From a virus (taxonomy: Duplodnaviria > Heunggongvirae > Uroviricota > Caudoviricetes): a DNA stretch of 27,461 nucleotides. The position numbers are program-made. How positions within the stretch are numbered: position 1 is the stretch's first letter; each line of letters starts with the position of its first letter. Of this stretch, positions 18,001 to 24,000 are shown piece by piece. Where the stretch lies: the IMG/VR virus record IMGVR_UViG_2718218399_000001; one strand, given 5' to 3'.

Positions 18001-21000
18001 TGTCGGGCGTATCGGCAGCGCCATTGGCGGTGCTTTCGGTGGTGGTGCATCTGCTTCCTCGGGGACGGCCATTCAGGCTGCGGCGGCGAACTTCCATTTC
18101 GCGACCGGAGGATTTACGGGGACGGGCGGCAAATATGAGCCTGCGGGAATTGTTCATCGCGGGGAGTTTGTTTTCACGAAAGAGGCAACCAGCCGGATAG
18201 GTGTGGGGAATCTTTACCGTCTGATGCGCGGCTATGCGGAAGGTGGTTATGTGGGTGGTGCCGGAAGTCCGGCGCAGATGCGGCGGGCGGAAGGTATTAA
18301 TTTTAATCAGAACAATCACGTGGTGATTCAGAACGACGGCACCAACGGACAGGCGGGGCCGCAGCTGATGAAGGCGGTGTATGACATGGCCCGCAAGGGG
18401 GCGCAGGATGAGCTCCGGCTGCAGTTGCGTGATGGCGGTATGTTATCGGGGAGCGGGCGATGAAAACCTTTCGCTGGAAAGTGAAGCCGGATATGGAGGT
18501 GAACTCGCAGCCATCGGTGCGTGAAGTGCGTTTTGGTGACGGGTACTCACAGCGTATGGCGGCAGGGCTGAATGCTGACCTGAAAACATACCGTGTGACG
18601 CTTTCCGTGACCCGGGAGGAGGCCCGGCATCTGGAAGCGTTCCTGGCAGAGCACGGAGGCTGGAAGGCATTTTTGTGGAAGCCACCCTATGCATACCGGC
18701 AGATAAAGGTGACCTGTGCCGGGTGGTCTGCGCGGGTCGGGATGTTGCGCGTTGAGTTCAGCGCGGAGTTTAAGCAGGTGGTGAACTGATGCAGGATATT
18801 CACGAAGAAAGTCTGAACGAGTCGGTTAAATCAGAGCAGTCACCGCGGGTGGTACTCTGGGAAATCGACCTGACGGCGCAGGGCGGTGAGCGGTATTTTT
18901 TCTGCAATGAGCTGAATGAAAAAGGGGAGGCGGTTACCTGGCAGGGGCGGCAATATCAGGCATACCCGATTGACGGCAGTGGCTTTGAGATGAACGGGAA
19001 GGGCAGCAGTGCCAGACCGTCGCTGACGGTGTCGAATCTGTTTGGTCTGGTCACCGGGATGGCGGAGGACCTGCAGAGCCTGGTGGGGGCCACGGTGGTC
19101 CGCCGCCGGGTGTATGCCCGTTTTCTGGATGCGGTGAATTTTGTGGCAGGCAATCCTGAGGCAGACCCTGAGCAGGAGCTGACGGACCGGTGGGTGGTGG
19201 AGCAGATGTCATCGCTGACGGCCATGACGGCCTCGTTTGTGCTGGCGACACCGACGGAGACGGACGGAGCGCTGTTTCCCGGTCGCATTATGCTGGCGAA
19301 TACCTGTATGTGGGATTACCGGGGAGATGAATGCGGGTATAACGGTCCTGCGGTGGCGGATGAGTTCGACAACCCCACCACGGATATCCGTAAGGACAGA
19401 TGCAGCAAGTGCATGCGCGGGTGTGAGATGCGCGGCATGGTGGCTAATTTTGGCGGTTTCCTTTCCATCAATAAACTTTCGCAGTAAATCCTGTTTTATG
19501 ACACAGACTGAATCAGCGATTCTGGTGCATGCCCGGCGGTGTGCGCCTGCGGAGTCGTGCGGCTTCGTGATAGGCACCCCGGAGGGCGAACGGTACCAGC
19601 CCTGCGTGAATATCTCCGCAGAGCCGGAGGCGTATTTTCGTATTGCGCCGGAAGACTGGCTGCAGGCAGAGATGCAGGGGGAGATTGTGGCGCTGGTTCA
19701 CAGCCACCCTGGTGGTCTGCCCTGGCTGAGCGAGGCCGACCGGCGGCTGCAGATAAAGAGTGCCCTGCCCTGGTGGCTGGTCTGCCGGGGGGAAATTCAT
19801 AAATTCCGCTGTGTGCCGCACCTGACCGGGCGTCGTTTTGAGCACGGGGTGACGGACTGTTACACCCTGTTCCGGGATGCATACCATCTGGCGGGGATAA
19901 CGCTGCCGGATTTTGAGCGTGAGGATGACTGGTGGCGCAACGGTCAGAACCTTTACCTGGACAATATGGCGGCGACTGGTTTTTACCGGGTGCCCCTGTC
20001 CTCTGCACAGGCGGGCGATATCCTGCTGTGCTGCTTTGGCGCATCGGTGGCCAATCATGCCGCCATATACTGCGGCAACGGTGAACTGCTTCACCATCTG
20101 CCTGAACAACTGAGTAAACGGGAGAGGTATTCTGAAAAATGGCAACGACGAACGCATTCTGTCTGGCGTCACCGCCACTGGCACGCATCTGCCTTCACGG
20201 GGATTTGCAACGATTTGGCCGCCGCCTCAGCCTGTACGTGAACACGGCAGCGGAAGCCATCCGTGCCCTGTCGCTGCAGATGCCGGGATTCCGCCGTCAG
20301 ATGAACGAAGGCTGGTACCAGATACGTATTCGCGGTGAGGACACGGCACCGGAGGCGGTGTACGCCCGTCTTCACGAACCTCTGGGTGAGGGGGCGGTCA
20401 TCCATATTGTGCCGCGACTGGCCGGAGCCGGAAAGGGTGGACTGCAGATTGTGCTGGGGGCGGCAGCCATCGTGGGCTCTTTCTTCACGGCCGGGGCATC
20501 AATGGCGTTATGGGGTTCAGCCCTGGCAGCCGGTGGTTTTTCTGCCACCACGATGCTGTTTTCACTGGGGGCCAGCATGATACTGGGCGGTGTGGCCCAG
20601 ATGCTGGCACCGAAGGCAAAAACACCGGATTACCGCGCAACGGATAACGGTAAACAGAACACGTATTTTTCGTCACTGGATAACATGATTGCCCAGGGGA
20701 ACCCGATGCCGGTGCCTTATGGTGAAATGCTGGTTGGTTCACGACGGATATCCCAGGACATCAGCACCCGTGATGAGGGCGGAGACGGGAAAGTGGTGGT
20801 TATCGGGCGGGGATGAAAATAAAAAAATCCCGCAGAGTTAGCGGAGCTGCGGGAGAGAACGATGAAGATTAACGTTATGGAGTTATTTTTCAGGCATCAA
20901 AAAAGTAATGCAGCGTCATTATTGCGGCTACAGGCAATTGCCGGAAATGTGAAGAGTTTCAGAAATTTTATTCCGTCATGACACAGGCACCCTCCGGGGT

Positions 21001-24000
21001 GCCTGTTGTTTTCTGGCATAAACAGATTCAGACATCAGACAGGAGAGGGGGACAGAGTGGGTAAAGGGGGCGGCAAGGGGCACACGCCGGTAGAGGCAAA
21101 GGACAATCTTAAGTCCACGCAGATGATGAGCGTGATTGACGCCATTGGTGAAGGGCCGATTGAAGGTCCGGTGAAGGGGCTGCAGAGTATTCTGGTGAAC
21201 AAAACCCCGCTGACGGACACGGACGGCAATCCCGTGATACACGGTGTGACCGCGGTCTGGCGCGCCGGGGAGCAGGAGCAGACACCGCCGGAAGGTTTTG
21301 AGTCATCCGGCTCTGAAACCGCACTGGGCGTGGAAGTGACGAAGGCAAAGCCGGTGACGCGCACCATTACGTCCGCGAACATTGACCGCCTGCGGGTTAC
21401 CTTCGGGGTGCAGTCACTGGTGCAGACCACCTCACAGGGTGACCGTAACCCGGCATCCGTCCGCCTGCTGATTCAGCTGCAGCGTAACGGTAACTGGGTG
21501 ACGGAAAAGGATGTCACCATTAACGGCAAGACCACCTCACAGTTCCTCGCTTCGGTGATTCTGGATAATCTGCCTCCCCGTCCCTTTAACATCCGGATGG
21601 TCCGGGAGACGGCGGACAGCACCACGGACCAGCTGCAGAACAGAACGCTGTGGTCGTCATACACCGAAATCATCGATGTGAAACAGTGCTACCCGAACAC
21701 GGCGATTGTGGGGCTGCAGGTGGATGCGGAGCAGTTTGGCGGTCAGCAGATGACGGTGAACTACCATATCCGCGGTCGCATCATCCAGGTGCCGTCAAAC
21801 TATGACCCGGAAAAACGCACGTACAGCGGCATCTGGGACGGCAGCCTGAAACCGGCATACAGCAACAACCCGGCCTGGTGCCTGTGGGACATGCTGACTC
21901 ACCCGCGCTACGGCATGGGAAAACGCCTGGGGGCGGCGGATGTGGACAAGTGGGCGCTGTATGCCATTGCGCAGTACTGCGACCAGATGGTCCCTGATGG
22001 TTTCGGGGGCACAGAGCCGCGGATGACCTTTAATGCGTACCTGTCACAACAGCGTAAGGCGTGGGACGTTCTCAGTGATTTCTGCTCGGCGATGCGCTGT
22101 ATGCCGGTATGGAACGGCCAGACGCTGACGTTTGTGCAGGACCGTCCGTCAGATGTGGTGTGGCCTACACCAGCAGTGATGTGGTGGTGGATGATAACGG
22201 CGTGGGGTTTCGCTACAGCTTCAGCGCCCTGAAGGACCGCCACACGGCGGTGGAGGTGAATTACACCGACCCGCAGAACGGCTGGCAGACCTCCACGGAA
22301 CTGGTGGAAGACCCGGAAGCCATACTGCGCTACGGGCGCAACCTGCTGAAGATGGATGCGTTCGGCTGTACCAGTCGCGGTCAGGCCCACCGTGCCGGGC
22401 TGTGGGTGATAAAGACCGGACTGCTGGAAACGCAGACGGTGGATTTCACGCTCGGGTCACAGGGGCTGCGTCACACACCCGGTGACATTATTGAAATCTG
22501 TGATAACGACTATGCCGGGACCATGACCGGCGGACGTGTCCTGTCCATCGATGCCGCCAGCCGCACCCTGACGCTGGACCGTGAGGTGACACTGCCGGAG
22601 ACCGGTGCCGCCACGGTGAACCTGATTAACGGCAGCGGTAAGCCGGTGAGTGTGGACATCACCGCACACCCCGCGCCGGACCGGATACAGGTCAGTACCC
22701 TGCCTGATGGTGTGGAGACATACGGGGTGTGGGGACTCTCCCTGCCGTCACTGTGCCGTCGCCTGTTCCGCTGTGTCTCCGTCCGGGAAAACACGGACGG
22801 CACCTTTGCCATCACGGCGGTGCAGCACGTACCGGAAAAAGAAGCCATCGTGGATAACGGTGCCCGCTTTGAGCCGCAGTCAGGTTCCCTGAACAGCGTC
22901 ATCCCACCGGCAGTACAGCACCTGACGGTGGAGGTGAGTGCAGCTGACGGCCAGTATCTGGCGCAGGCTAAATGGGACACGCCGCGGGTGGTGAAGGGCG
23001 TGCGCTTCAGTCTGCGCCTGACCAGTGGTAAGGGAACGGATGCCAGACTGGTGACCACCGCCATCACCGCAGACACGGAGCACCGTTTCAGCGGCCTGCC
23101 GCTCGGGGAATACACCCTGACGGTGCGGGCGATAAACAGCTATGGCCAGCAGGGTGAACCTGCCACCACCACCTTCCGGATTGCCGCACCGGCAGCACCG
23201 TCGCGGATTGAGCTGACGCCGGGCTATTTTCAGATAACCGCCACGCCGCATCTTGCCGTTTATGACCCGACGGTACAGTTTGAGTTCTGGTTCTCGGAAA
23301 AGCGGATTGCGGATATCAGGCAGGTTGAAACCGCAGCCCGCTATCTTGGCTCGGCGCTGTACTGGATAGCTGCCAGTATCAATATCAAACCGGGCCATGA
23401 TTATTATTTTTATATCCGCAGTGTGAATACTGTTGGCAAATCGGCATTCGTGGAGGCTGTCGGTCGGGCGAGCGATGATGCGGAAGGTTACCTGGATTTT
23501 TTCAAAGGAGAAATCGGGAAAACACATCTGGCCCAGGAGCTGTGGACGCAGATTGATAACGGTCAGCTTGCGCCGGACCTGGCTGAAATCAGGACGTCCA
23601 TTACGAATGTCAGCAATGAAATCACGCAGACCGTCAATAAAAAACTGGAAAATCAGAGTGCGGCAATCCAGCAGATACAGAAAGTTCAGGTTGATACAAA
23701 TAATAACCTGAACAGCATGTGGGCCGTGAAACTGCAGCAGATGCAGGACGGACGCCTTTATATTGCGGGTATCGGTGCCGGTATTGAGAATACGCCAGCA
23801 GGAATGCAGAGTCAGGTGCTGCTGGCGGCAGACAGGATTGCGATGATTAATCCTGCGAATGGCAACACAAAGCCGATGTTTGTTGGTCAGGGCGATCAGA
23901 TATTTATGAATGAAGTGTTCCTGAAATATCTGACGGCTCCCACCATTACCAGCGGCGGTAATCCTCCGGCATTTTCCCTGACACCGGACGGGCGGCTGAC

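Follow-up and report, generated by a model that had tools for sequence, protein, structure and literature searches.

A probable small RNA gene of the pasB family between the tail genes I and J of a lambdoid prophage, on the strand opposite to them

The virus record IMGVR_UViG_2718218399_000001 (Caudoviricetes) is a stretch of 27,461 nucleotides (nt), called the window below, in which the tail genes I and J are separated by a gap of 241 bp. Over 24.9 kb the window is 100% identical only to Escherichia coli O157:H7 strain 86-24. The gap is very probably a small cargo cassette, and its functional gene would be an Hfq-dependent small RNA (sRNA) of the pasB family, located on the minus strand and oriented against the tail operon. 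The element itself, though uncharacterised, is not new: it has been described as PasB in enteropathogenic E. coli (EPEC) and as EcOnc22, EcOnc23 and EcOnc24 in enterohaemorrhagic E. coli (EHEC). The equivalence of PasB and EcOnc22-24 appears to be unstated in the searchable literature, and EcOnc22 is mentioned neither in the preprint of Zhu, Shabalina & Storz (2026) nor in the paper on HnrS (PMC13502914).

A first-pass annotation had described the gap as an insert containing a short open reading frame (ORF) flanked by a hairpin and a terminator, and sequence, ORF and terminator scans recovered all of these features. Viewed on the plus strand, the TGA stop codon of gene I (20814-20816) is directly followed by an A-run (20817-20827) and a stem-loop, CCCGCAG...CTGCGGG (20829-20853). 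Next comes an ATG-initiated ORF of 39 codons (20862-20981), with GGGAG positioned 6-7 nt upstream of the ATG. A GC-rich stem (20983-21006) and TGTTTTCT precede the leader of J, whose GTG start codon is at 21058. In a terminator consensus scan the right hairpin came out as a terminator for the plus strand, and the left one as a terminator for the minus strand, with a ATTTTTTT tail; the scan yielded 4 sites per 2 kb, compared to 1.5 expected. The strong plus-strand terminator with its T-run thus stands as first described, except that its stem measures 10 bp and not 9 bp. The left hairpin with the A-run, proposed earlier as a minus-strand terminator, would be the intrinsic terminator of the sRNA. 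Folding relative to shuffled sequences gave z = -3.7 for the plus-strand terminator and z = -2.9 to -4.1 for the minus-strand RNA. Genes I and J of phage lambda had been taken to be contiguous, but 60 bp lie between them, with a sense hairpin and a T-run, so that the net extra DNA in the window is about 180 bp.

The small RNA and its published relatives

The body of the sRNA is assigned to 20821-20896 on the minus strand (76 nt). Its ends are transferred from PasB of EPEC strain E2348/69, and the primary start is possibly at about 20911. The intrinsic terminator (20821-20854, minus strand) consists of an 8-bp stem, UCCCGCAG/CUGCGGGA, a variable loop of 11 nt and a U7 tail running from 20827 to 20821. 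A conserved unstructured core, AUAACUCCAUAACGUUAAUCUUCAU, occupies positions 20862-20886 of the minus strand, and its family consensus is AAyUCCUUAAnGUUAAUCUUCrU (alignments A2 and A3). The core contains an anti-Shine-Dalgarno-like CUCC(U/A)U motif; we infer that it is the seed region.

Variants of the gap were collected from IMG/VR by two routes, one using a conserved 16-mer, which is biased, and the other using homology to the N terminus of J, which is unbiased with respect to the gap. A covariance model, R1, built from 20 variants with all window-type sequences excluded, has a single strong match in the window, at 20821-20913 on the minus strand (78.8 bits, E 1.6e-12). When 25 diverse variants were folded with RNAalifold, the terminator stem alone was kept (7 pairs, 99.4% paired), whereas the body is conserved in sequence but unpaired. 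Compensatory changes are found at two pairs of the stem, in the most diverged variants. A conserved unpaired body combined with a terminator stem is the typical architecture of Hfq-dependent sRNAs. As in the reference loci, the sRNA of the window is positioned between I and J on the strand opposite to both. Judged by its sequence, the window carries a member of the PasB/EcOnc22-24 family with all structural parts intact.

VT1-Sakai and many EHEC genomes share the gap at 100% identity. Of 5426 complete E. coli genomes, 801 contain it, in a median of 3 copies and at most 9; a scan of genome contigs with the 16-mer gave chance matches only, in unrelated taxa. The comparison of I-J junctions across lambdoid prophages, suggested by the first-pass annotation, covered two groups. 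The sRNA module is present in all 77 junctions located beside J proteins that are 96-99% identical to the J of the window, and in none of 80 junctions located beside a lambda-type J.

PasB (pathogenicity-associated sRNA B) is an RNA of 83 nt, encoded on the minus strand of NC_011601 from 1466343 to 1466261 (Pearl Mizrahi et al. 2021, PMC8550237, Table S6). It was validated in E2348/69 by Northern blotting, with the probe AATCCCGCAGTGATCGCGGAGCT, and by the ligation and sequencing of interacting RNAs (RIL-seq), in which it forms Hfq-dependent chimeras with many mRNAs (PMC8550237). The pasB gene lies between E2348C_1436 and E2348C_1437, which is the I-J gap of prophage PP6. The Northern probe matches the plus strand of the window at the left hairpin, and the PasB-type RNA must therefore come from the minus strand. 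In alignment A1, positions 1466343 to 1466261 of PasB correspond to window positions 20896 (5') to 20821 (3'), and 64 of the 85 aligned columns are identical. In the RNA-seq tables for EPEC, pasB reaches a baseMean of 482-1082, with a log2 change of -6.8 in a delta-hfq strain, compared to a baseMean of about 5 for the flanking gene I and about 15 for J (PMC8550237). The high level of pasB next to nearly silent I and J genes indicates that, in EPEC, the RNA is made independently of the late operon. According to a preprint, PasB sits within an operon made up of structural genes of the phage, and one of its carriers is NC_049945 (Zhu, Shabalina & Storz 2026). This genome is one of the 100%-identity matches to the gap of the window.

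The window RNA and PasB share the same gap, from the stop codon of I to the start codon of J, the same antisense strand and, judging by the Sakai data on the identical sequence, the dependence on Hfq. Their terminator stem (CCCGCAG/CUGCGGG with U7) does not differ, nor do the core (containing CUCCUU and UUGAUCUUCAU) and the positions of the -10 element and dyad further upstream. The differences are that about 6-8 nt are missing near the 5' end of the window RNA and that its terminator loop is another one. The putative promoter of the window has AATAAT instead of TATAAT, and no good -35 element.

The EHEC evidence bears on the very same sequence: in strain Sakai, prophages Sp11, Sp14 and Sp15 have I-J gaps that match the gap of the window at 100% identity. 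The orphan Hfq-binding sites EcOnc22 (Sp15), EcOnc23 (Sp14) and EcOnc24 (Sp11) are homologues, detected on Northern blots as RNA of about 85 nt that is destabilised in a delta-hfq strain (Tree et al. 2014, PMC4104026, Table S2). The coordinates in that table belong to an older genome version and were recalibrated using AgvB1 and HnrS. AgvB1, located by its Rfam match, is 137-146 nt higher in NC_002695.2 than in the 2014 table, and HnrS/EcOnc10, located by its mazF-complementary seed and terminator, is 132-149 nt higher. Both controls also bear out the strand convention of the table. EcOnc24 sits between the two calibrators, so that the same offset is valid for it. In NC_002695.2 all three EcOnc peaks fall within I-J gaps, at the same distance from the start of J and on the strand opposite to I and J. 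After correction of the offset, the peak obtained by Hfq cross-linking and analysis of cDNA (CRAC) corresponds to about 20828-20898 on the minus strand of the window, the segment that ends in the left hairpin. Unadjusted coordinates would place the peak on the reverse complement of the right-hand terminator, a placement ruled out by the offset of about 140 nt seen for AgvB1 and HnrS. All EcOnc coordinates that were checked (1.9-3.5 Mb) are about 140 nt low relative to NC_002695.2, and their uncorrected use misplaces sRNAs by more than their own length.

The DNA of the whole gap is identical in the EcOnc22/23/24 loci and the window. The EcOnc RNA is oriented opposite to I and J, has a length of about 85 nt and is unstable in delta-hfq, properties that the window RNA would presumably share. 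The difference lies in the strain and prophage background, which is that of Sakai and not of 86-24, and the EcOnc ends are without mapping in print.

Candidate promoter, CRP-like dyad and proposed mode of action

A candidate -10 hexamer, AATAAT, is located at 20918-20923 on the minus strand, aligned with the TATAAT of E2348/69. In that strain the promoter scan found TTCACA-16-TATAAT on the sRNA strand, with 11 of 12 matches. A hexamer of the xATAAT type is found at the same position in 68 of 69 variants. The AATAAT hexamer predicts a start at about 20911 and a transcript of about 91 nt; the 5' end of the sRNA could be primary or processed.

Further upstream is a CRP-like dyad, AAATGTGA-AGAGTT-TCAGAAAT (20945-20966), centred 32.5 bp upstream of the -10 hexamer. 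The dyad is the most conserved block of the whole gap. Compared to the CRP core TGTGA-N6-TCACA, the sequence TGTGAAGAGTTTCAGA has one mismatch over the 10 specified bases, although in the window alone such a match is not significant (2 compared to 1.0 expected). The left half-site, which had no part in the selection of the sequences, is invariant in 68 of 69 unique variants, whereas the N6 spacer exists in 7 versions. In 66 of 68 variants the dyad and the -10 hexamer are 24 nt apart, although the sequence between them is hypervariable. This pattern of conservation is the apparent signature of a protein-binding dyad tied to a promoter. The centre of the dyad is at about -44.5 from the start predicted by the -10 hexamer and at about -59.5 from the PasB-derived 5' end, compared to canonical positions such as -41.5 and -61.5. 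Neither position is canonical, so that CRP control of the sRNA promoter is put forward as a hypothesis. A circumstantial hint of such control comes from EPEC, where PasB is higher in the non-activating condition, in which the CRP-repressed sRNA Spf is lower. No earlier report of a CRP-like dyad at a fixed distance from this -10 element was found in the literature.

The following mode of action is proposed. Transcription would start at the sRNA's own sigma-70-type promoter (-10 AATAAT, 20923 to 20918), which may be controlled through the conserved dyad. It would proceed leftward through the unstructured core and stop at the hairpin and U7 tract directly after the stop codon of I, giving a product of about 76-91 nt. 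As others have shown, such an RNA can be produced in lysogens even though the tail genes on either side are silent. The sRNA would act in trans, by base pairing of its core, with the anti-Shine-Dalgarno-like CUCC motif, to target mRNAs.

Several points weigh against this interpretation. The RNA evidence comes from Sakai, whose three copies are identical to the window and indistinguishable from each other, and from EPEC, whose sequence is 75% identical over the alignment; none comes from 86-24. The placement of the EcOnc22 peak hangs on the calibration, and a zero offset would move it to 20974-21034 on the minus strand. The -35 region of the window is poor, and the promoter scan calls nothing there. 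The length of the sRNA differs with the basis of the estimate: 76 nt from the PasB-derived end, about 91 nt from the -10 hexamer and about 85 nt from the Sakai Northern blots. In E2348/69 too, the annotated 5' end of PasB and the consensus -10 element disagree, the latter being about 15 nt further upstream. Rfam has no family for the gap, whether the gap is searched at E <=10 or the whole window at gathering thresholds. Finally, the function of PasB is stated as not elucidated (Zhu, Shabalina & Storz 2026), and no PasB target motif is reported in the literature, so that the trans mechanism is proposed by analogy only.

Other readings of the gap and other prophage RNAs

The ORF at 20862-20981 on the plus strand lacks conservation and most likely does not represent a gene. 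The first-pass annotation had considered it as a small moron gene with its own ribosome-binding site (RBS); such a gene would be translated from the late transcript or from a promoter of its own. An ATG does stand 6-7 nt behind GGGAG and a strong terminator follows the frame; furthermore, an ORF of 32 amino acids is annotated at the same place in one phage record. However, the GGGAG is the 3' arm of the sRNA terminator stem. A check on the conservation of the frame, proposed with the moron reading, went against it. Only 26 of 57 unique variants keep both the start codon and the frame between ATG and TGA. The start is lost in 10 of the 57, which have ACG or a deletion in place of ATG, and several in-frame variants stop early, for example after 22 codons in E2348/69. 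Only the first 8-9 codons (MKINxKEL) persist, and these coincide, on the opposite strand, with the sRNA core. Pfam gave no match to the peptide, no entry for it was found in the supplements of the Sakai small-gene study by ribosome profiling (RIBOseq), and the promoter scan called no plus-strand promoter in the gap. A genuine protein-coding moron is therefore highly improbable, and the ORF is most likely an accidental frame that mirrors the sRNA on the complementary strand.

A type I toxin-antitoxin-like pair, also raised in the first-pass annotation, would have the minus-strand RNA repress a plus-strand toxin mRNA encoding the small ORF. The geometry is suitable, since a fully complementary sRNA with a terminator of its own overlaps the ORF at its ATG and RBS, but geometry alone is insufficient. 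The peptide has no hydrophobic segment (grand average of hydropathy 0.03, highest 15-residue mean 0.74), the frame is broken in most variants, and variants without the start codon keep the sRNA. The gap has no called plus-strand promoter, and RIL-seq gives the sRNA many trans targets. This pair is barely conceivable, and both the protein-coding and the toxin readings are rejected. The third option of the first-pass annotation, a small RNA, was borne out by Hfq-CRAC, Northern blotting and homology to PasB, but on the strand opposite to that of the ORF.

It is also very unlikely that the gap contains no gene at all, with both hairpins serving just as insulators within the tail operon or as stabilisers of its mRNA, and with a decay fragment behind the Hfq signal. 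Both hairpins are indeed terminator-like, and a hairpin precedes J even in the 60-bp gap of lambda, which lacks the sRNA. Nevertheless, a discrete, Hfq-dependent band of 80-85 nt from the antisense strand is found in two pathotypes, and the RNA is expressed while the tail genes are silent. E2348/69 has a near-consensus promoter, and both the core sequence and the dyad upstream of it are kept, with a constant spacing. We also considered, and discarded, a partner sRNA on the plus strand that would end at the right-hand terminator, as no Hfq peak, RIL-seq entity or promoter call was found for it.

A more open question is whether the sRNA acts mainly in cis. Pairing with the late tail mRNA might lead to cleavage of the mRNA, or to titration of the sRNA, and so tune J in its own and in co-resident prophages. 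In any late transcript the I-J segment offers the sRNA a fully complementary partner, a single genome can have identical gaps in several of its prophages, and the module is tied to one J lineage, as the junction counts given above indicate. There is no experimental hint of such a role, however; RIL-seq shows trans partners, and the RNA is located upstream of the J RBS at a distance of about 160 nt. The matter is moot for the prophage of the window, which has lost its late promoter region and has a frameshift in J. A main role in cis is unlikely, but a cis role could coexist with trans targets. Rather more speculative, and doubtful at present, is a scheme that combines these elements: the sRNA would be a nutrient-sensing regulator controlled by CRP-cAMP, acting in trans on host mRNAs and as a cis antisense RNA on the tail mRNA of co-resident prophages, with the cassette being mobile in the slot of the J lineage. 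If this were true, lysogens with multiple prophages would cross-regulate J and tail production through the sRNA, and the mobile cassette would consist of the sRNA gene and the dyad, placed in front of the retained pre-J terminator.

The pasB-family sRNA can be compared to several other prophage RNAs. HnrS (EcOnc10-12) represses hha, and its seed CUUCUACCCAAUCAGUAC pairs with hha and mazF (PMC13502914). Like the RNAs of the pasB family, HnrS is multicopy and Hfq-bound, is located in prophage late regions and has an intrinsic terminator, and the octamer UAAUCUUC upstream of the terminator is common to both. Model R1 has a weak match to HnrS (L010, 446-538 on the plus strand, Sakai Sp12; 21 bits, E 0.044). 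The likeness of HnrS and PasB could reflect distant common ancestry or chance. HnrS differs in having 66 nt, in lying beside the Rz/endopeptidase lysis genes and in its seed, which is absent from the window RNA. The number of copies ('up to nine') had fitted HnrS as the identity of the window RNA, but the lysis-region locus and the other seed rule it out. The hha mRNA was likewise dismissed as a shared target: only CUUC is in common with the UGGGUAGAAG site, and unconstrained duplex energies are uninformative. The anti-sRNAs AgvB and AsxR and the sRNA pairs of the PR' moron site are also short, Hfq-binding prophage sRNAs in tolerated insertion sites of lambdoid late operons. Unlike the window RNA, they occupy the Q/PR' moron site, have 51-60 nt and are unrelated in sequence. 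AgvB and AsxR were excluded as the identity of the window RNA by their different site and unrelated sequence, and their Rfam models have no match in the gap.

The I-J junction and the prophage remnant

The sense, intrinsic-terminator-like hairpin before J (20983-21014, plus strand) has a 10-bp stem, a 4-nt loop and a U-tract, and is directly upstream of the J leader. The leader (21029-21060, plus strand) contains two TCAGACA heptamers (21029-21042) and the RBS GGAGAGGGGG (21043-21052), followed by the GTG. The number of TCAGACA copies in this tandem repeat varies, with 1 to 2 more inserted in relatives.

The right-hand part of the 77 related junctions is variable. In 41 of them it is window-like, and the window-type stem has a compensatory change from C:G to U:A in 13 of the 77. 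Another 35 junctions have a gap of about 344 bp (class B, e.g. L254, 1160-1501), in which GAAAGAAAACCCCGGTATC-TGCT-GATACCGGGGTTTCTCTTT, a bidirectional-looking terminator, replaces that of the window type and about 120 bp more are present. The class B terminator could work in both directions, and a second minus-strand RNA is possible there; the right-hand part of this gap has no Rfam match. The one remaining junction (L261, 650-1501) contains a reverse-strand Cu/Zn superoxide dismutase gene (Pfam Sod_Cu, 3.9e-32) at the place of the sRNA promoter. Among the 80 lambda-type junctions, 75 have the 60-bp gap only and 5 have a forward lipoprotein-like ORF with its own hairpin; in L339, with a gap of 477 bp, this ORF encodes 112 amino acids and has no Pfam match.

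A sense hairpin with a T-run before J is kept in 76 of the 77 junctions, in non-homologous versions, and lambda and 75 of the 80 lambda-type junctions have versions of their own. The hairpin of lambda (NC_001416, 15445-15504) resembles that of the window in being GC-rich, in the sense orientation and, with its T-run, directly upstream of the J RBS. It differs in its non-homologous sequence, its 60-bp gap and the lack of the sRNA module. We know of no characterisation of this lambda hairpin. Because the hairpin is kept whatever the cargo, it represents a more ancient element of the operon that is separate from the sRNA gene, with the cargo inserted upstream of it. Candidate roles are the termination of transcription not modified by Q, or the stabilisation of mRNA. 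On the available sequences, the I-J junction appears to be a second moron slot of lambdoid phages, occupied by the sRNA, by SodC, by a lipoprotein-like gene or by nothing. No earlier report of this junction as a recurrent cargo slot was found in the literature.

The identity of the sequences indicates that the window is the prophage at mlrA/yehV of strain 86-24, in the form of a cryptic deletion remnant. Sakai Sp15 (VT1-Sakai) was ruled out as its identity by the lambda-like kil, cIII and ea10 genes at 7.1-7.8 kb; only the tail and I-J part is common to the window and the Sakai prophages. At the deletion junction (about 11418-12518) a cro-like helix-turn-helix gene is joined to a 5'-truncated fusion gene of a ClpP-like protease and the major capsid protein. 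The deletion has removed the replication genes, Q/PR', the lysis genes, terminase and portal, leaving the tail operon of 86-24 with no known promoter. Gene J is frameshifted near 22109-22232, resulting in overlapping ORFs (21006/21058-22232 and 22109-24529), and is labelled 'frameshifted' in RefSeq, which has no annotation within the I-J gap of this prophage. The same break in J is found in Sakai Sp15 and apparently in Sp14.

In the Rfam search of the whole window the only match returned was Lambda_thermo, the cIII thermoregulator (7333-7391, minus strand, 88.5 bits), at the start of the CIII ORF. The CIII protein of the window appears identical to that of lambda, and Kil and an Ea10-like gene adjoin its ORF. 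Another Hfq-CRAC peak of Sp15, EcOnc47 (Tree et al. 2014, PMC4104026), when shifted by +140 nt, would correspond to about 27086-27132 on the plus strand of the window. This segment is intergenic, between the tail-fibre genes and dinI, so EcOnc47 might represent a further Hfq-bound RNA that lacks an annotation.

A widespread sRNA gene is thus absent from Rfam and escapes RefSeq/PGAP annotation in the records examined, and its locus invites a wrong small-ORF call. The hairpin before J is an uncharacterised feature of a very well studied operon. The link between EcOnc22-24 of EHEC and PasB of EPEC merges two experimental data sets on one family, and the CRP-like dyad offers a testable hypothesis on when this uncharacterised sRNA may be made.

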